A stretch of DNA of 64,000 bases from Promethearchaeia archaeon (GCA_029856045.1 JAHQWG010000016.1:384001-448000); one strand, 5' to 3'; counted from the first letter of the stretch, positions 44,122 to 55,635 are shown. Program-made: numbers and translations. The notes: generated by a model not told the origin, from the letters alone.

Positions 44122-46179
44122 ATGGAAAAAACAATATTTGAAAACTTCGATGAAATTCAAAAAAAAATCGAAGATTTTGAAAACCAACTTTCTAATAATA
44201 AAAAGAGTGGGAAACTTAAAGGAACTGTTTATACTCCAGAAATAATATGCAGATATATTTGTTTAAAAAGTATTCAATATCATATAAACACTATATTAAG
44301 ACAACAGGAAATCTCTAAATATCTCGATCTTATTAAAGAACCAAATTTTTCATCACTAAAATCATTATTAAAAGCTAATAATAATTTAACAAAAGTATTA
44401 AAAGATTTACTTAAATCAATAAGAATACTCGATCCCGCTTGTGGAACTGGCCGATTTTTAATATCAATGGCTAATATCCTCTTTCAACTATTTAAGATCT
44501 TAAATCCCGCTGAAGACCAATTTAACATAAAAAAATCAATTATTGAACGCAATTTATTTGGCGTAGATTTGGACACACAAGCCATTGAATTATGTCAATT
44601 ACGCCTAATAAACTGGGTTTATAATAGAAAAGCAACCCAAAAACATGATTTATTCAAAAATAATATAATTCTCGGCAATTTTTTGATTGAAGATAAAGTC
44701 GTTGATTTTAAAAAATTCGATATTATATTAGGAAATCCTCCATATATTGAAAATAAAAAAATGAAATCCTCCTTTAATAAGCAAATTCTAAAGCAAAAAT
44801 ATGAATCTGCTTATAAATTATATGATATTTCTATTTTATTTATAGAACAAGCATATCAATTATTGAAAAATAAAGGATATTGCTCTTTCATTATAACAAA
44901 TAAATTTCTTTCAGCTGATTATGGTCTAAAAATTAGAAATCTACTTATAAATCAAACAAAAATTCTTGAAATAGTAGATATTTCTTCATTAAAAATATTT
45001 AAAAATGCCTCAATCTATCCAATAATTATTTCTTTCCTAAAATCAAAAAATTTATTGAATTCTGAACATATAATCTCAATTAAAAATGCTCAAAAATTTG
45101 AAATCATCGAAGATTTTCTATTTAAAAGATTTCTTAGTAAAAAAATTATACAATCCAACATTAATCTAATTCCATCCTTAGTAATTCCGATTGTTGGTGA
45201 TTTTAATATTATAAATTACCTTATATCCAATTTTAAATCACTTGAAGAAATCTATATAAATTCAAAATTCATCTATAGACCATTCACTTTTACGAATTGG
45301 GCAAAATATCTGGACCTTATTGTGAATAAAAGACATAATGAAAAGGACCTTATATTGATCGGGACGAGCAATATTGGAAAATTCCATATTAAATTTAATA
45401 AAGAAATAAAAATTGCCAATAGACGTTTATTTATGTCATTTTTTCCTTATGATAAAACTTTTAATAGATTTTGGAGTGATCTTCAGAAACCTAAATTGAT
45501 TTTTAAAGAAATTGCGAAAGAAATGACAGTATTTTGCGATCTTGGTTATTTTATTAATATAACAGGGGCTTATATGCTTTTGGGAGAAGATCTCTCAGTA
45601 GAAAAGATATTTTCTCTCTCAGTTATTATGAACTCTAAATGTGTAGATTATATTTTTAAATCACTTTTCAGCTCCTTACATATGGCTTCTGGATACCTAC
45701 GCTTTAATGGAAGTTTTTTAAAGAGAATCCCCCTTCCTTCAAACATTCCCCAAATTTTCTCAAAACTAGGAAAATTACTTCACTTTCTACATCAATTAAA
45801 ATATGAAATTACTCAGGATCAACAATGCAACTGTATTCAAGAGGAATCTCTTAATAATATTGTTAAGTTCTTTAAGAAATTAATTGATTGTATGGTCTAT
45901 TATCTATATTTCTCCGAAATTATTCAGAAAGATAATATTTATTGCAATGAGATTTTAAAAATTATGAAAAATGGAAATATCTTTCCTGATATAATGGAAA
46001 TATTTCCTTATCGCAAAATAAAATCAAATAATTTTAGACAATTAATTACATTTAAATCGAAAAATATATTGGACCAGATTGTAAATCTTTATAATTTTTA
46101 CTCAAATTCAAATAAGCTTAATAATGAAATGACTCTAATCCTAAATCATAAGTGGATTAAACTAATTGAAAATGCATGA
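44122..46179 (+). CDS. Eco57I/TaqI-like N6-adenine DNA methyltransferase (gamma class) with TaqI-C-like domain
   Basis: VYTP, DPACGTGRF, GVDLD, GNPPY, then KLIFKEI...NS...YLRF. Confidence 0.88.
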   Translation: MEKTIFENFDEIQKKIEDFENQLSNNKKSGKLKGTVYTPEIICRYICLKSIQYHINTILRQQEISKYLDLIKEPNFSSLKSLLKANNNLTKVLKDLLKSIRILDPACGTGRFLISMANILFQLFKILNPAEDQFNIKKSIIERNLFGVDLDTQAIELCQLRLINWVYNRKATQKHDLFKNNIILGNFLIEDKVVDFKKFDIILGNPPYIENKKMKSSFNKQILKQKYESAYKLYDISILFIEQAYQLLKNKGYCSFIITNKFLSADYGLKIRNLLINQTKILEIVDISSLKIFKNASIYPIIISFLKSKNLLNSEHIISIKNAQKFEIIEDFLFKRFLSKKIIQSNINLIPSLVIPIVGDFNIINYLISNFKSLEEIYINSKFIYRPFTFTNWAKYLDLIVNKRHNEKDLILIGTSNIGKFHIKFNKEIKIANRRLFMSFFPYDKTFNRFWSDLQKPKLIFKEIAKEMTVFCDLGYFINITGAYMLLGEDLSVEKIFSLSVIMNSKCVDYIFKSLFSSLHMASGYLRFNGSFLKRIPLPSNIPQIFSKLGKLLHFLHQLKYEITQDQQCNCIQEESLNNIVKFFKKLIDCMVYYLYFSEIIQKDNIYCNEILKIMKNGNIFPDIMEIFPYRKIKSNNFRQLITFKSKNILDQIVNLYNFYSNSNKLNNEMTLILNHKWIKLIENA

Positions 46180-46214: not shown

Positions 46215-47153
46215 TTAATAGTTTATAATTAAAACCTCTTTAATTTGCCCCCTACCCGAAGCATCTGAATTTATAGCTCTTTTTGCATGAACTGTTTTTA
46301 AATCATATTTTTTATACAAATCTAAAATAAATTCATTATACGAATTACTTAACATAACTTTACATCCACGATTATCTAACTCTTCATAAACTTTAAACAA
46401 TCTAACTTGATCTTCTTTATTAAAATTCTCTTTGGTATAACTAGTAAAATTAGCAGTGGCCGAAATTGGTTGATATGGAGGGTCAAAATAGATAAAATCA
46501 TCCTTTTCAGCTAATTCTAAACATTCCTTAAAATCTCCATTAATAATCTGAATATCTTTTAATACCGTATTTACTGCTAATAAATTTTCTTTGTCACAAA
46601 ATTTAGGATTTTCATATTTACCAAAAGGAACATTAAACTCTCCTTTACTATTGACTCTATATAACCCATTAAAACAAGATCTATTCAGATAAATCATACG
46701 AGATGCTCTTTCAACATCTGAGAGCTTTTTAAATTCCACAAGGTTTCTGTCAATACTTCGGATTTTATAAAAGTAATCTTTTTCGTTTTTATGTTTTTTT
46801 AAAGAATTAATTAATTCTCCAATTTTATTCTGAATTACTCTATAACAATTTATTAATTCTTCATTATTATCAATTAGGATTGCTTTATTAGGTAATAAGT
46901 AAAAAAACAATGCTCCTCCTCCAATAAATGGTTCTAAATATTTATTAAAATTTTTTGGAAGATATTTATTTATTTGTTCTAATAATTGTTTTTTTCCACC
47001 TGCCCATTTAATAAAAGGGTGTGGGACACCGACGATTTTCTTTACTTTTTTGTTTTTCCTTCTTATAAAATTTCGAAGTGAAACATCATTATCATTATCT
47101 TCCCCTAAATAATTAAAAATGTTTCTTTGAAATTTATTTGCTCTCAATGTCAC
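46215..47153 (-). CDS. Dam-family (D12 class) adenine methyltransferase
   Basis: PFIKWAGGK, EPFIGGG, FNGLYRVN, DPPY, LSNS. Confidence 0.93.
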   Translation of the reverse strand: MTLRANKFQRNIFNYLGEDNDNDVSLRNFIRRKNKKVKKIVGVPHPFIKWAGGKKQLLEQINKYLPKNFNKYLEPFIGGGALFFYLLPNKAILIDNNEELINCYRVIQNKIGELINSLKKHKNEKDYFYKIRSIDRNLVEFKKLSDVERASRMIYLNRSCFNGLYRVNSKGEFNVPFGKYENPKFCDKENLLAVNTVLKDIQIINGDFKECLELAEKDDFIYFDPPYQPISATANFTSYTKENFNKEDQVRLFKVYEELDNRGCKVMLSNSYNEFILDLYKKYDLKTVHAKRAINSDASGRGQIKEVLIINY

Positions 47154-49778: not shown

Positions 49779-50777
49779 ATGCTTTCGAAAAATCTTAAAA
49801 GAATAATATTAATTACTGTGGATTTTTTCTTTTCTGCTTTTATCTTTTATATCAATGCATCTTGGAAAAACCCTTTTTATACATGTTTTATATTATCCCT
49901 TATTACTTTTCTATTTGTATTAATTCCATTTGAAGTTTATTGGAGTTTCCGTGATATATGGTTTGATAGATGGAATAATATTAACTTAAAAAATATACAT
50001 GTGGAAAAAATAAGCATTTCTGTTGATGGGGGATCTTTATCTGGTGCAATATATCAATTGAAAATTTCTAATTCAACTCATTTATCTCAAAATAAACCCA
50101 TAATCATAATATCCCAGGGATTTTCAGATTTAAAAGAAGATTTAGAATATTTTTTCCTTCCAATCGTAAATTTTGGTTATCCAGTTCTTGCTTATGACGC
50201 TCGTGGTACTGGTGAATCTAAAAAAGTAGGAAAAAAAGCTGATATTAAGAATAGAATTAATGATTTTTTACATATTGTGAGATGGATTCAAAATAATGAT
50301 AAATTGGGCAATAAAGAGATTTATACAGCAGGATTTAGTATTGGTGCGTTGACCATTTTATGTGGAGGTTTTCCTTTAGAAGAAATTAAAAAAATATTTG
50401 CAGTATCTGCGATTGCTGACTTTAGAGAAAATATTCCTCGTTTTAATCCAATTGTGTGGCTTCGATATTTCTTTAAAGGAATACACCAATTTCCTAGTGA
50501 AGAGACCAATTTAACAATATCTCCTTATCATGTGATTAAAAAATATAAAGATCAAATTTTTTCAGGTTCTGAGGTTGAATGGAAAGAATTTACTAAAAAA
50601 GTGATGTTAGTTCATACAAAAAACGATAGAGTTGTAAAATTTAAGAATTTTATTAAAAACAAGGAAATTCTGTGTTTAAATGATAATAACACATTAGTTT
50701 TTAATAAGGGAGGGCACGTACTAAAAAAAAATGAATTAACACTTGTAACTTTGGCGTTAAATTTCTTTAAAAATTAA
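49779..50777 (+). CDS. Membrane-anchored alpha/beta hydrolase
   Basis: Two N-terminal TM helices; YDARGTGES, GFSIG, NDRVV, GGH. Confidence 0.85.
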   Translation: MLSKNLKRIILITVDFFFSAFIFYINASWKNPFYTCFILSLITFLFVLIPFEVYWSFRDIWFDRWNNINLKNIHVEKISISVDGGSLSGAIYQLKISNSTHLSQNKPIIIISQGFSDLKEDLEYFFLPIVNFGYPVLAYDARGTGESKKVGKKADIKNRINDFLHIVRWIQNNDKLGNKEIYTAGFSIGALTILCGGFPLEEIKKIFAVSAIADFRENIPRFNPIVWLRYFFKGIHQFPSEETNLTISPYHVIKKYKDQIFSGSEVEWKEFTKKVMLVHTKNDRVVKFKNFIKNKEILCLNDNNTLVFNKGGHVLKKNELTLVTLALNFFKN

Positions 50778-51939
50778 ATTTTACTGCCGTTTTCATCGTT
50801 TCTTTTACAATATCTATTATTTTATTAAAATTGTCAATTTTTTTATCAAAATAGACTTGACTACTTTTACATTTTTCAATTTCTTCAAAAAGGTTGAAAA
50901 ATTGTTTATCAAGTTCTAATTCAAATATAAATGTTTTTGGTCTTCGAGTAGAATGTCCCAAACATACAAAACATCCATGATCTTCCGGATGAAGAAATGC
51001 TGGTTGTCTTATATCCCACATGAAATCTTTCAATTGATTTTGAACTTTTTTTGCGATTGATCTGCAAAAATCACCACTCTTGTAATTATAAATGTAAGCA
51101 AAAGGCAATTTGTCTTTATTTTTCTTCCAAGCTTCTCTTAAATTATCTCTTAACTGTTCCCCTTGGTTAATAGTAATATTAAAATGGTGGTGATCTAAAT
51201 CTTTATGGGGTTTCACAAATAACGGTTCTCTTTTAGGTAAATCTTCTCTTTTTACGAGATATTCAACAATCCACATTTTATAATAATGCTCTAATTTATA
51301 GAAAGCATTTAAATTTTTAACCATATCCTCTGTAAATCTTCTTAATAATGATGTTTCATGAAAATCGATTAAATATATCTCGAGATCCCTCTCCCAATAT
51401 TTCTGAATAAAATTTTTAAAGACTAAAGCATTTTCCGGAATAATATATGGGTTATTATCCTCATCTTTCTCCCTAAAATTGGGAATAAAAGTCTTCCTCC
51501 AATATCTATTTAAATTGTCACCATTTCTCAAATAATAACCGGATTTATTATCAGATCGGGGGTTTAAGAAGCCATAAGGGTTCATTAATGGAAATAAAAT
51601 TATCATAGAATTTTTTAGTTCATTGGATATAAGGTCCTTATTTTTGGTAGAGGTTAATTCAAATAGATAAGATATTTGCCCAAAAAGCCCGCAATACTCA
51701 TTATGTTGAGATGCGACCATTATATATAGTTTTCTTAGTTGGTCTAAACTTTTTGGCTGATTAATAGTTAAAACTGGTATCTTACCATCTGATATTTTTA
51801 AATATTCAAGCTCAACAAAATCGGATTTATTAAATAATTCCAATTTATTAAAAATTTCATTTAATAATTTTTCTCTTTCTTGTGGAATTAAAAGTTTGTT
51901 TAATATATCCTTATCTATATAATAATTTGAATTATTCAA
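50767..51939 (-). CDS. M14-like zinc carboxypeptidase/deacylase (divergent)
   Basis: ASQHNEY (His/Glu Zn ligands, one residue shorter than HxxE), PLMNPYG, NLNRYW, IDFHET, FELE. Confidence 0.72.
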   Translation of the reverse strand: MNNSNYYIDKDILNKLLIPQEREKLLNEIFNKLELFNKSDFVELEYLKISDGKIPVLTINQPKSLDQLRKLYIMVASQHNEYCGLFGQISYLFELTSTKNKDLISNELKNSMIILFPLMNPYGFLNPRSDNKSGYYLRNGDNLNRYWRKTFIPNFREKDEDNNPYIIPENALVFKNFIQKYWERDLEIYLIDFHETSLLRRFTEDMVKNLNAFYKLEHYYKMWIVEYLVKREDLPKREPLFVKPHKDLDHHHFNITINQGEQLRDNLREAWKKNKDKLPFAYIYNYKSGDFCRSIAKKVQNQLKDFMWDIRQPAFLHPEDHGCFVCLGHSTRRPKTFIFELELDKQFFNLFEEIEKCKSSQVYFDKKIDNFNKIIDIVKETMKTAVKFNF

Positions 51940-53323
51940 TTATTTTACTCCAATCTGAAAAATTAATAATTTTATTATAAGTTTCAGTAATACTTTTGAA
52001 GAGCACACAGCCAATACAAAACATATCAACAAAATCCTCATCAGAGAGGTTTAATATGTCCCTAGTACTTGGTGATATTGCTAATGCACGATCTGCCTCA
52101 ATTTTTCCATCGTAACCACTTAAATTAACCACAAATTCCTGTTTATTCAATGTCCCTCCATAAGAATTACGTGCAATTCTAACTAAACCACCAATTGGAA
52201 TTATTTTCCCTTCTTTTTGACTCAAATAAATTCTAATATCAAAAGTGTGATTTCCATTTCTCCAATCAATTAAGGAAAAATTTGCCATTTCCATAATCGT
52301 ATAGGGATATGGATCTCGAATTTTAAGGAATTTTCCGAAAAATTCATCTTTACTTTTCTTAATAATATTTCTAAAATTCGAGGGATCTTCATCAGAACTA
52401 ATAGGAATAATACCTGCTCCACCAGATCCACCACTTGGTTTAATAATAAAATTTGTATTATAATTTTTAACAACAAAATCCATTTTTTTCAATAAATCCT
52501 CTTCATTCATTCCTTTACTAAACATCAGATATTTTACTCGATATTTTTCTAACTTACTTTTAGCAAAATATTCAGCTAAATAAGTTAAAGATTTATCATC
52601 TGTAATTAAAAAAATCGGATTAACAATAGCTGTATTTATTTTTCGAAAATCTTCTCTTACTAATCGTTTAAAATCTTCATCTTTTATCCTACGAGCAATT
52701 CCATCTCCGATTAATAAATTTACTTTTTGATCTTTATACATAACCCAATTATCTCTAAATGAGATATTCAAGGCTATATTTTTATAATCTGTGATAAAAA
52801 ATGCCACGTCTTCAGTAAAAAATCCTTTAAAATTTAATTCAGTATAAATATTGACGCTATATCCTATTTCTAATATTTTTTTTTTCAAATATTCTAATAG
52901 AAAAATCTTTTCATGAAGCAGCGCATCATCAATAGGCGTGCCAACTAAAATAAAGAGCTTACTATCTTCTCTTTTATTGTTTTTTAAGGAATTTTTTATG
53001 GCTTGTAAATATCCATCATATAACAATCCTTGTTGTTTAGGTGTTATGATTGAAAGACCTCTTGACGAGCCTCCATTCGTCTCAAGTATGAAAAATCTCT
53101 TACGCCCATTATTTTTTTCCACCATAAAATCAATAGCACCAGCATAAAACATTTCTTTCTCAATTAAATAATGTTCTTTTGACTTCTTTAATTTTTTTAA
53201 TGCCCTTTCTCTGATTTTATCGGCGTATTTATCATCTTGTGATTCTCTCAGTAATTTAAATGATATTAGATTTACACCAAAATATTTACCCAACTCAATT
53301 AAATCTGACTCATCTAATTTCAA
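51932..53323 (-). CDS. Circularly permuted ATP-grasp amino-acid/peptide ligase
   Basis: IDFMV...FFILETNGG at the N-terminus, then IKPSGGSGGAGI, FDIRIY, GGLVRIA, VVNLS; GGTGA SD upstream of the TTG start. Confidence 0.8.
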   Translation of the reverse strand: MKLDESDLIELGKYFGVNLISFKLLRESQDDKYADKIRERALKKLKKSKEHYLIEKEMFYAGAIDFMVEKNNGRKRFFILETNGGSSRGLSIITPKQQGLLYDGYLQAIKNSLKNNKREDSKLFILVGTPIDDALLHEKIFLLEYLKKKILEIGYSVNIYTELNFKGFFTEDVAFFITDYKNIALNISFRDNWVMYKDQKVNLLIGDGIARRIKDEDFKRLVREDFRKINTAIVNPIFLITDDKSLTYLAEYFAKSKLEKYRVKYLMFSKGMNEEDLLKKMDFVVKNYNTNFIIKPSGGSGGAGIIPISSDEDPSNFRNIIKKSKDEFFGKFLKIRDPYPYTIMEMANFSLIDWRNGNHTFDIRIYLSQKEGKIIPIGGLVRIARNSYGGTLNKQEFVVNLSGYDGKIEADRALAISPSTRDILNLSDEDFVDMFCIGCVLFKSITETYNKIINFSDWSKIIE

Positions 53324-53459
53324 TTTTCTTCACCAAAAAATTAAGATCTTATCTCTTAAAATTCGTTTTCTTTTAAGAACTTTCTATCCAAGTTTTTCTT
53401 CAAATAAAAATTTAAATGTTGAGATATTTGTCAATCTGTAAAGATTTGTCTATTAAAAA

Positions 53460-54092
53460 ATGCCATTAAAAAAAGAAAATAAAAATTGGTTAAAGCGTGC
53501 AATGAAATTAAAAATGTCACTAAGTTGTATTTCAGGTATCTTAGTTATCCTATTCTATTGTATCTTTACTTTTATTGCTATTACTTTATTTCCACTACCC
53601 TTGAATCCTATTGATAATTGGTTGAGTGATCTTGGCAATTCTGGCTATAGCCCTAATGGTGCTATATTCTTTAATATCGGTTGTATTCTAACTGGAAGTG
53701 CTTTATTTCCGTTTTATATAGGGTTACATAAATGGTATAGAGAAGAGAAATGGCAAAAATTCTTATTAATCATCACCCAAATAATCGGATGTTCTTCTGG
53801 ATTTACTGAAATAATGATCGGGATCTTTTCTGAAAATTTTCAACCTGAACATAGTAATTGGTCATACACATTTTTCACTTTAAACCTCATAGTCTTGGTT
53901 TTAGGAAGCATTGTATTATTTAATCATCCCGATTTTATTAAACCAATTGGATACTATGGGATCGGTGTTGCTGTAATTAATTTACTTTTCGTGTTCTTTA
54001 TTGTTACCCCTATATTAGAATGGTTTACGGTTTTGACCGCTTTAGGTTATGTCGGCTTAGTCGTCTATAACATGTACAAAATTATAGATTGA
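53460..54092 (+). CDS. DUF998-like membrane protein
   Basis: NWLSDLGN...FFNIGCILTG, multiple TM helices, ILEW. Confidence 0.75.
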   Translation: MPLKKENKNWLKRAMKLKMSLSCISGILVILFYCIFTFIAITLFPLPLNPIDNWLSDLGNSGYSPNGAIFFNIGCILTGSALFPFYIGLHKWYREEKWQKFLLIITQIIGCSSGFTEIMIGIFSENFQPEHSNWSYTFFTLNLIVLVLGSIVLFNHPDFIKPIGYYGIGVAVINLLFVFFIVTPILEWFTVLTALGYVGLVVYNMYKIID

Positions 54093-54393: not shown

Positions 54394-55635
54394 TTAGAGA
54401 TATAAATACCCTTGATAATTCCCCTTCACAGAAAGTCTTAAGCTGCCAATCACAATCTTTTTAATTTTAATTTGCTCCTTATAACTAAAATCCGAATACA
54501 AAAGAAAATATCGTTTCTCAGTATTTATATTAAAAAGAAGCCCTATATTAATTTGTTCGTTCTCTTCGGTTTTTAAAGCAACAATTACATAATGATAAGG
54601 TAATTTTACCAATTCTTCTAAATATAATTGTTTTTCGATAATTTTCTCATTTTCCAAGTCATAATCCTCTTTAATCAGAATTATCTCATTAAAAGGGACA
54701 GTAATTTTGCGAAATTTTTCAAAAACCATAGCAAATTGCCTTTGTCTTAAAAACCGGCGATCCTCTTTAGTTCTTTCAAAATAATAGTTATTAACTGCTT
54801 CTATTGAAAAGATTTTAGGTTTTGAACTGAGTTTTTTTATATCTTTCTCAATTTCCTCTAACTCTTCTACTTCCTTGTCTTTAAATATGATAACATAATC
54901 TGGTTGAATCATAGAACAAAAAAATTTTTTATAAAGTATACCAGTTTCTGTCTTGATCCAGCCATCTGTATCAATAAGAATGAACCTAGTTTCTTTATTT
55001 TCCTTGGAAAATTCTTCAATTAATTCTTTAGAATAGTGGGGTAAGATAAATTTCAAATCAGCTTTTGGAAAAGTAGAACCAATAAATTTTGTGTCTTTAG
55101 AAATAAAATCTTGAGTTGATAAAATATATGAATCTATCATTCCAATATTAATCGTTGTAGGAATATACATCTGCTGCTGACCTAAATCTGAATCTAAATA
55201 TCCTCCCTTTAACCCCTCTGCTAAAAGTTTATTGGCTAAATATTTAATAAGTGTCGTTTTCCCGCTGCTAAGACCTAATACCATTATTTTTGCTGGGGTA
55301 GTACTAGTTAATTTTTTCATATCTTCAATAATTTTATTAGAAATTCTAATCCAACTTTCTGGAATCGAATTATCCTCCAATTTAATAACCTGGTCTTCAT
55401 TCGCCACATAAATTTCAATCTCAGAATCTTCCAAAAATAATAAAGGATACCTTATACCGGTTGATATAATTATTACATTAGGATCTTTTATATTCGGTTC
55501 TAAAAGATCGATTTTTTCTCTTTTCTCTTTAACCTTTATAACTTTTCCAAAAATCTCAACTTCTCCCTCTAATAATGCTGCTTTAGAAGGTCCAGCCAAT
55601 AAAATAGATTGCCCTTTTTTGTATTTCTTTATCAT
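54394..55635 (-). CDS. Clp1/Grc3-family polynucleotide 5'-kinase
   Basis: LLAGPS N-domain, SGKTT, DSDLGQ, PTTI, IDTDGW, RRFLRQ. Confidence 0.88.
   Translation of the reverse strand: MIKKYKKGQSILLAGPSKAALLEGEVEIFGKVIKVKEKREKIDLLEPNIKDPNVIIISTGIRYPLLFLEDSEIEIYVANEDQVIKLEDNSIPESWIRISNKIIEDMKKLTSTTPAKIMVLGLSSGKTTLIKYLANKLLAEGLKGGYLDSDLGQQQMYIPTTINIGMIDSYILSTQDFISKDTKFIGSTFPKADLKFILPHYSKELIEEFSKENKETRFILIDTDGWIKTETGILYKKFFCSMIQPDYVIIFKDKEVEELEEIEKDIKKLSSKPKIFSIEAVNNYYFERTKEDRRFLRQRQFAMVFEKFRKITVPFNEIILIKEDYDLENEKIIEKQLYLEELVKLPYHYVIVALKTEENEQINIGLLFNINTEKRYFLLYSDFSYKEQIKIKKIVIGSLRLSVKGNYQGYLYL

Follow-up and report, generated by a model that had tools for sequence, protein, structure and literature searches.

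A circularly permuted ATP-grasp ligase and an M14-like zinc hydrolase form a candidate amide-bond cassette in a Loki-type Asgard archaeon

A 64,000-nucleotide (nt) stretch of the genome of a Promethearchaeia archaeon (GCA_029856045.1, JAHQWG010000016.1:384001-448000; the whole stretch is referred to here as the window) carries on its minus strand two overlapping genes, of which the upstream one (gene 1) encodes a circularly permuted ATP-grasp ligase and the downstream one (gene 2) a predicted cytosolic zinc hydrolase with the fold of the M14 carboxypeptidases. The host is a Loki-type Asgard archaeon, and its genome is 100% complete. We regard the permutation of gene 1 as established; the assignment of gene 2 to an M14 fold that retains most of the catalytic residues is supported, as is a functional coupling of the ligase with the zinc hydrolase, for which independent lineages point the same way. 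We propose, with moderate confidence, that the cassette makes and breaks one amide bond, with a small peptide-like or acyl-amino-acid metabolite as the favored substrate, and that it is the remnant of a wider module.

Database searches returned 373 homologues of gene 1 and 184 of gene 2, with identities of 55–96% and 39–92%, respectively, among the matches listed, and wherever their sources are named these are Asgard assemblies labelled Promethearchaeota or Lokiarchaeota. These numbers, together with the invariant or nearly invariant motif residues in alignments of 38 sequences for each gene (A1 for gene 1 and A2 for gene 2), argue that both genes are real and not chance reading frames. The arrangement reported in a first-pass annotation of the window – two genes on one strand overlapping by 8 nt, with a GGTGA element ahead of the first – was confirmed on the minus strand (Table 1), and the overlap is consistent with translational coupling. 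The homologous loci likewise have the two genes on the same strand, with a gap of about 1–25 nt between ligase and M14 gene. Three codons ahead of the TTG start of gene 1 there is a TGA codon, and in the window's genus this start falls later than in most homologues, about 16 of whose N-terminal residues are missing. The 3' end of gene 2 overlaps a convergent alpha/beta-hydrolase gene by 11 nt.

Gene 1 has the three-domain ATP-grasp fold, and every one of the motifs quoted for the two genes in the first-pass annotation was found. In gene 1 these are IDFMV at residues 64–68, ILETNG at 79–84, KPSGGSGG at 295–302, FDIRIY at 361–366 and GGLVRIA at 378–384, which by motif and alignment would provide the magnesium-binding D...E-x-N element, the ATP-binding lysine with its glycine-rich loop, and the D-x-R strand of an ATP-grasp enzyme. 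D65, E81 and N83 are invariant in all 38 homologues, as are the K-P-x-G-G-S-G-G signature and D362-x-R364, and in the structure model the D...E-x-N element lies on a hairpin formed by strands 62–71 and 74–82. A RimK-like E-F-x-x-N-L-S-G motif is also present.

The position of the hairpin is what marks gene 1 as permuted, for the magnesium hairpin is C-terminal in classical ATP-grasps and N-terminal in gene 1. Structure comparison reflects this: permuted ligases match the gene 1 model over residues 2–454, whereas classical ATP-grasps match only residues 120–454 and leave the N-terminal hairpin unpaired. The matched range in the classical chains ends at residues of about 230–303 (325 for TTLL6 and 616 for TTLL11), which we take to be ahead of their own magnesium hairpins, going by the metal ligands of DdlB and TTL. 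At the sequence level, the only significant similarity of gene 1 to any classical family is that of residues 145–324 to RimK-type enzymes of the same archaeal family (hhalign, Prob 69%, E 4.4e-5), in which KPSGGSGG is paired with the KPxxGSxGxGV of the RimK-type proteins. When alignment A1 was rotated by placing residues 119–463 ahead of 1–118, it became collinear with the RimK-type enzymes over almost their entire length (6–462 against 7–303 of 304, in 292 columns), with the DK, KPxGSxGxG, QE, DxR, E-F-x-x-N-x-x-G and D...ExN motifs all in register. Rotation gave no rise in the hhalign score against the RimK-type enzymes, and profiles built from segments alone (50–118, 1–118 and 330–463) produced no significant match to them, with the hairpin placed elsewhere; the call of permutation therefore leans mainly on fold and motif order. 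With the model alignment ranges and the rotated alignment taken together, the circular permutation that the first-pass annotation had read from motif order is upheld.

The ATP-grasp fold occurs in circularly permuted form in eukaryotic glutathione synthetase and in the bacterial CP-ATP-grasps, and profile searches assign gene 1, by sequence, to none of the curated permuted families. With hmmscan it has no match at E<=1 to PF04174 or PF14403 (CP_ATPgrasp_1 and CP_ATPgrasp_2), and PF03917 (eukaryotic glutathione synthetase) is matched at E<=1 neither by gene 1 nor by anything found in a search of the whole genome. The Pfam matches that do appear are all sub-threshold (ATPgrasp_ST, 1.5e-4; YheCD, 5.6e-3; GSH-S_ATP, 0.17), no other ATP-grasp family being reported by hmmscan at E<=1, and the NCBIfam matches are weak ones to RimK-related and glutathione-synthetase models. 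Searches of PDB chains by sequence with both proteins and their profiles yielded nothing useful. Among the closest known systems are the CP-ATP-grasp 3n6x and PDB entry 3k1t, a 'putative gamma-glutamylcysteine synthetase' of Methylobacillus flagellatus whose own function is putative only; gene 1 is 12–14% identical to these. The alpha-E, transglutaminase-like and NTN-hydrolase genes that usually accompany bacterial CP-ATP-grasps are absent from the ten genes neighboring gene 1, in agreement with the first-pass annotation. The glutathione and homoglutathione synthetases (2hgs, 3kal, 1m0w) share the fold of gene 1 at 10–16% identity, without the family-model match, and gene 1 similarly lacks a Pfam GSP_synth match, which separates it from Escherichia coli GspSA and its homologues YgiC and YjfC. 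RimK, LysX and ArgX have the DK, KPxGSxGxG, DxR and E-F-x-x-N-x-x-G motifs in common with gene 1; the RimK family is non-permuted, unlike gene 1, and the Pfam RimK model matches two other genes of the window's genome and not gene 1. Gene 1 also neither matches the TTL/TTLL model (PF03133) nor has the non-permuted topology of that family.

A glutathione pathway was considered and rejected, the genome having no matches to GCS2, Glu_cys_ligase, GSH_synth_ATP or PF08886. The gamma-glutamylcysteine ligase families PF04107 and PF04262 are without a match in the genome in searches whose controls were informative, PF03074 (GCS) has none in this genome nor in the control genomes, which makes that search uninformative, and PF08886 (GshA-type ligase) has none anywhere in the genome at E<=10. 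Since the searches with informative controls found no gamma-glutamylcysteine ligase family in a genome that is 100% complete, the canonical pathway is unlikely.

Gene 2 has the alpha/beta fold of carboxypeptidase A, and the assignment to M14 made in the first-pass annotation holds for the fold and for most of the catalytic residues. Its motifs are HNE at residues 79–81, NPYG at 120–123, LNR at 143–145, DFHE at 192–195 and ELE at 340–342, and by motif and order N144-R145, H194 and E342 would correspond to N144/R145, H196 and E270 of carboxypeptidase A. The match to the Pfam M14 model PF00246 falls just below threshold (20.8 bits against a gathering cut-off of 21.6, E 3.3e-4; 20.9 bits in the genome search). 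The first metal motif is QHNEYNG in 37 of the 38 homologues and QQNEY in the other, and it aligns, weakly, with the QHGxEWNG of AstE-type proteins that partner related ligases (hhalign, P 0.0019 over 86 columns); PF24827 (AstE/AspA) is not significant on gene 2 itself (E 0.15). AstE/AspA proteins have a Q-H-(G)-x-E-[WY]-N-G metal motif in common with gene 2, which is larger than they are and one residue short in HxxE. The gene 2 model begins with helices at residues 10–36 and one hairpin, and the bacterial CCP-like structures 4a37, 3l2n and 4b6z pair with it only from their own residues 78–110 on, which indicates that gene 2 is without the N-terminal beta-sandwich domain of the CCPs. No signal peptide was seen by eye in either protein sequence, and both appear to be cytosolic. 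We note that gene 2 has several additional invariant or nearly invariant histidines and cysteines (H250, H252, H317, H321, C323 and C292, of which H250, H317 and C323 are invariant), as well as some 75 inserted residues separating the distal zinc histidine from the catalytic glutamate; a further metal site or an element of specificity could be made up of these.

The pair is limited to one GTDB family and one other Asgard lineage known from a metagenome-assembled genome (MAG), a narrower distribution than conservation across Asgard genomes, which the first-pass annotation had named as a check. In a survey of 201 Asgard species genomes, the ligase is present in 38 of the 40 genomes of the window's own family and in none of the three genomes of the sister family, with one weak partial match elsewhere. 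The M14 gene is found in 28 of the 40 and in no other family; wherever present it lies immediately downstream of the ligase, and it never occurs apart from it. In the four peptidase-negative loci inspected (L033, L034, L035 and L036, of genomes G065, G109, G174 and G171), there is no M14 remnant, and the intact ligase stands between the Clp1-like kinase on one side and, on the other, the convergent alpha/beta-hydrolase followed by a small acidic protein. Genomes G192 and G129 contain short M14 fragments with stop codons. The clean absences and the stop-containing fragments together indicate that the peptidase has been lost repeatedly within a single family. Because the surroundings of the pair keep their synteny over more than 15 kb at every Loki-family locus examined, adjacency inside the family is weak evidence for coupling when taken alone.

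Independent evidence comes from outside the Loki family. A profile search of 1.84 billion representative sequences recovered 94 relatives of the ligase, none of which belongs to a curated permuted family; their Pfam matches are weak ones to ATPgrasp_ST or YheCD, with one to TTL (2.7e-5) and one to GSH-S_ATP. A subgroup at 30–40% identity occurs in Hadarchaeota and Anaerolineae, and in 16 such loci the ligase homologue is adjoined by an AstE/AspA-type zinc deacylase in 12 and by a protein of about 400 amino acids (aa), which we refer to as A6, in 11, with gene order and orientation varying among the loci. The deacylases, which match PF24827 at up to 1.4e-27 and the NCBIfam DoeB model at 2e-24, fill beside these ligases the place of gene 2. 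Some of the loci also contain HD phosphohydrolases, metallo-beta-lactamase-fold genes or three U32 paralogues. The closest ligase relative outside the Loki family, P0243, is on an Asgard MAG contig (L049) that also has ubiquitin, E1 and E2 genes, and it heads a five-gene operon on one strand (L049:6001-12431) that comprises the ligase, an M14-like gene, a 541-aa metallophosphoesterase, an HD phosphohydrolase and A6. The M14-like protein of this operon matches the A2 profile at E 1e-50 and retains QHNEYNG and DFHETS, and its A6 protein matches at E 4e-156. The pairing of the ligase family with zinc hydrolases of the same clan in distant lineages, in shuffled gene orders, thus gives independent backing to functional coupling. 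Gene 2 would stand in for the AstE-type partner, since a genome search found no AstE-like gene in the window's genome and gene 2 is its only M14-like gene. In a quick maximum-likelihood tree, with midpoint rooting for drawing only, the Loki clade is inside the Hadarchaeota/Anaerolineae-type group (SH-aLRT 97–99), a placement suggesting that a module came to the Loki family by inheritance or acquisition and was dispersed afterwards.

A6 is a third conserved partner, missing from the first-pass annotation. Linkage to the ligase is seen in Hadarchaeota, Anaerolineae and one Asgard lineage, but not in the window's genome, where A6 is on another contig among housekeeping genes (C44:20523-21731, also given as L028:8491-9735; E 1.6e-134); further A6 coordinates are L049:11223-12431 and L009:7484-8683. 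It is present in 83 of the 201 Asgard genomes, many of which have no ligase, and A6 is therefore independent of the ligase. No Pfam model, RtcB included, matches it. Its conserved motifs PNxCGM, SNHF, MHxSG, NHQG and PHGGGY align, in the same succession, to the RtcB motifs that bind metal and carry the GMP-histidine, and in an hhalign comparison with 21 Asgard RtcBs four motifs and the C-termini are in register (E 0.007, 252 columns). The RtcB family model NF007153 gives E 0.005, and the second-best and only other match of the A6 profile in the window's genome is the true RtcB gene (E 0.1). By these signals, each of them weak, A6 is a probable remote relative of RtcB.

Other features of the wider family are set down here. 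In some Anaerolineae the A6-ligase-AstE cluster has, on its upstream side, a tandem array of two or three Peptidase_U32 paralogues (L014:1377-4510, L024:1375-4512, L015:211-1876); the U32 family takes in RNA and quinone hydroxylases. More distant ligase relatives (group A3) occur as tandem paralogues and have no M14 or AstE partner in the loci seen, and single members of this group also match GPP34 or metallo-beta-lactamase domains. Full-length but very distant relatives are present in the green alga Tetrabaena socialis (PNH11051.1, P0331) and in a Cyanobacteriota MAG.

How might the pair act? The motifs of gene 1, of the RimK and GshB kind, and its fold neighbors, of the glutathione synthetase and GspS kind, suggest by analogy with RimK, GshB and glutathione synthetase that gene 1 would convert a carboxylate to an activated acyl-phosphate and join an amino acid to it. 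The N-R pair and the general-base glutamate of gene 2 suggest action on a residue with a free alpha-carboxylate, and gene 2 would remove the same C-terminal residue that gene 1 had added, the two together making and breaking one amide bond. They would be the remnant of a module consisting of the ligase, an M14- or AstE/AspA-type hydrolase, the probable RtcB-like enzyme and sometimes HD and metallophosphoesterase proteins. By analogy, a small peptide-like or N-acyl-amino-acid substrate is more likely than a protein tail, because the close fold relatives of the ligase are all metabolite ligases, because the AstE/AspA enzymes that serve as alternative partners are N-acyl-amino-acid deacylases acting on small substrates, and because GspS offers a precedent for a ligase joined to a reversing amidase. 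GspSA itself carries its hydrolase as a fused cysteine amidase of the CHAP type, in contrast to the separate M14 zinc enzyme here.

Several observations weigh against this reading. The two genes are a candidate enzyme pair with predicted activities and a putative class of substrate. The first metal motif of gene 2 is HxE instead of HxxE, with glutamine for histidine in one homologue, and neither zinc binding nor catalysis is assured. The equation of the N-terminal hairpin of gene 1 with the classical magnesium hairpin is based on fold and motifs, the segment alignments not being significant. The M14 partner is dispensable, as its lower count within the family shows (28/40 against 38/40 for the ligase), and coupling of making and breaking is therefore not obligatory. 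Finally, the RtcB-like protein, the HD and metallophosphatase proteins and the adjacent Clp1-type kinase are RNA-end enzymes, for which a simple metabolite pathway has no obvious need. A complex prediction for ligase and peptidase, run without controls, gave an ipSAE of 0.00 and is evidence neither way.

The company of RNA-end enzymes underlies an unlikely alternative, that a horizontally mobile module with a divergent RtcB-like enzyme and phosphoesterases has RNA ends or a nucleotide-linked compound as its substrate. It might, for instance, reversibly attach an amino acid to an RNA-processing factor, or to a carboxylate or amine borne by RNA or a nucleotide. At every family locus whose upstream gene was identified, the gene next upstream of the ligase encodes a Clp1-type P-loop polynucleotide kinase on the same strand; in the window the two are separated by an oppositely oriented DUF998 membrane-protein gene. 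As functional evidence the Clp1 linkage is equivocal, because the whole block is syntenic and because Clp1 homologues are patchy in other Asgard families without the ligase.

Protein tagging, in which the ligase would add amino acids (e.g. glutamate) to a C-terminus or an acidic side chain, after the manner of RimK, TTL and TTLL, and the M14 enzyme would trim them like a CCP, is doubtful to a similar degree. This was one of the two forms that the first-pass annotation had given to a ligase/de-ligase pair, the other being a gamma-glutamyl-type metabolite, by analogy with the tubulin code, in which TTL/TTLL and CCP (M14D) are likewise an ATP-grasp amino-acid ligase and an M14-fold peptidase that removes C-terminal residues. 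The general idea is reasonable and its coupled part stands, given the M14 gene immediately downstream and the AstE/AspA pairing elsewhere, but a coupling that is obligatory does not, the peptidase being dispensable. The chemistry fits tagging, with the RimK-like E-F-x-x-N-L-S-G of the ligase and an N-R pair in the peptidase suited to a C-terminal carboxylate, and so do the weak central-domain matches to ATPgrasp_ST and YheCD and the single TTL match in the wider family. Both proteins also appear cytosolic, a dispensable eraser is compatible with M14 loss in some genomes, and a very acidic small protein is syntenic with the pair. That protein, however, has a basic tail, is on the opposite strand and is partnered with a different hydrolase, and no linked target candidate was found. 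The missing CCP N-domain and the use in other lineages of an AstE/AspA-type partner, from a family that acts on small N-acyl amino acids, also stand against tagging, and the specific TTLL/CCP analogy is left unsupported.

It is rather improbable that the two enzymes are sequential and not opposed, catalyzing biosynthetic or salvage steps in which the peptidase frees an amino acid, unmasks a carboxylate or releases a product from a carrier. Pairing of an ATP-grasp ligase with a peptidase is a known theme, and in the LysW pathway LysK, the partner of LysX and an M20 rather than an M14 enzyme, acts after LysX to release the product from the carrier. Dipeptide operons of a ligase plus a peptidase exist, and the additional enzymes of the module (RtcB-like, HD and Metallophos) would be expected of a multi-step pathway. 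In Staphylococcus aureus an L-amino-acid ligase adjoins the M20D carboxypeptidase HmrA (PMC9486568). Against sequential action, the window contains no linked carrier protein or other pathway gene, and the intact ligase of the four inspected peptidase-less genomes is hard to fit to an obligatory step. Least credible by far is that adjacency is inherited synteny between genes of unrelated function, for although the long syntenic block and the ligases without a peptidase would allow it, the genes overlap or nearly abut on one strand, the M14 gene is never away from the ligase in 201 genomes, and zinc hydrolases of the same clan are linked to the ligase family in three distant lineages in varied orders.

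The remaining neighbors of the pair are listed with the gene features in Table 1. The alpha/beta-hydrolase is S15/S33/S9-like, with a weak match to UilS-like lactonase, and has a hydrophobic N-terminal stretch that may be a membrane anchor; its synteny holds across all family loci, those without the M14 gene included. The small acidic protein, encoded upstream of it and kept in all family loci inspected, has 99 aa, of which the N-terminal two-thirds are extremely acidic and probably disordered, and a C-terminal four-cysteine knot (C-x2-C ... C ... C); neither Pfam nor NCBIfam models match it. An Eco57I/MmeI-type N6 methylase gene, which belongs to the conserved synteny block, adjoins a gene for a D12-class Dam-like adenine methylase.

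Table 1. Coordinates in the window of the two genes, their sequence elements and the neighboring genes.
Feature	Position	Strand	Basis or remark
Gene 1, circularly permuted ATP-grasp carboxylate-amine ligase, unclassified family	51932-53323	minus	463 aa, TTG start
Gene 2, predicted cytosolic zinc hydrolase, M14 carboxypeptidase fold	50767-51939	minus	390 aa, TTG start
8-nt overlap, gene 1 stop 51932-51934 and gene 2 start 51937-51939	51932-51939	minus	sequence
GGTGA Shine-Dalgarno-like element, 6 nt upstream of gene 1 TTG	53330-53334	minus	read from sequence only
Beta-hairpin with Mg-binding D...E-x-N, codons D65-N83 of gene 1	53075-53131	minus	motif and model
KPSGGSGG, ATP-binding lysine and glycine-rich loop, central domain, codons K295-G302 of gene 1	52418-52441	minus	motif, alignment
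H79-N80-E81 of gene 2, variant metal motif, HxE versus HxxE of M14/AstE	51697-51705	minus	CAT AAT GAG
N144-R145 (motif NLNR) of gene 2	51505-51510	minus	invariant in A2
H194 (motif DFHET) of gene 2	51358-51360	minus	invariant in A2
E342 (motif ELE) of gene 2	50914-50916	minus	invariant in A2
Alpha/beta-hydrolase	49779-50777	plus	
Acidic protein of 99 aa	49360-49659	plus	
DUF998 membrane protein	53460-54092	plus	
Clp1-type P-loop polynucleotide kinase	54394-55635	minus	
Eco57I/MmeI-type N6 methylase	44122-46179	plus	
D12-class Dam-like adenine methylase	46215-47153	minus	

Neither the pair nor the module was found described for Asgard archaea in the literature consulted, which did not extend to the chief comparative survey on amidoligases, and our analysis gives no support for an Asgard precursor of the tubulin glutamylation/tyrosination system. 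What is new is a sparse ligase family, spread across archaea and bacteria with one weak eukaryotic match and having neither a curated model nor a solved structure, that is repeatedly accompanied by zinc hydrolases from the carboxypeptidase clan and also by a probable remote RtcB. Its substrate, if found, would reveal either a novel metabolite or a novel type of modification, and would at the same time give a function to an RtcB-like family that 83 of the 201 Asgard genomes contain. Should the RNA-linked reading be true, the module would represent a new link of amide-bond ligation to RNA repair or processing.

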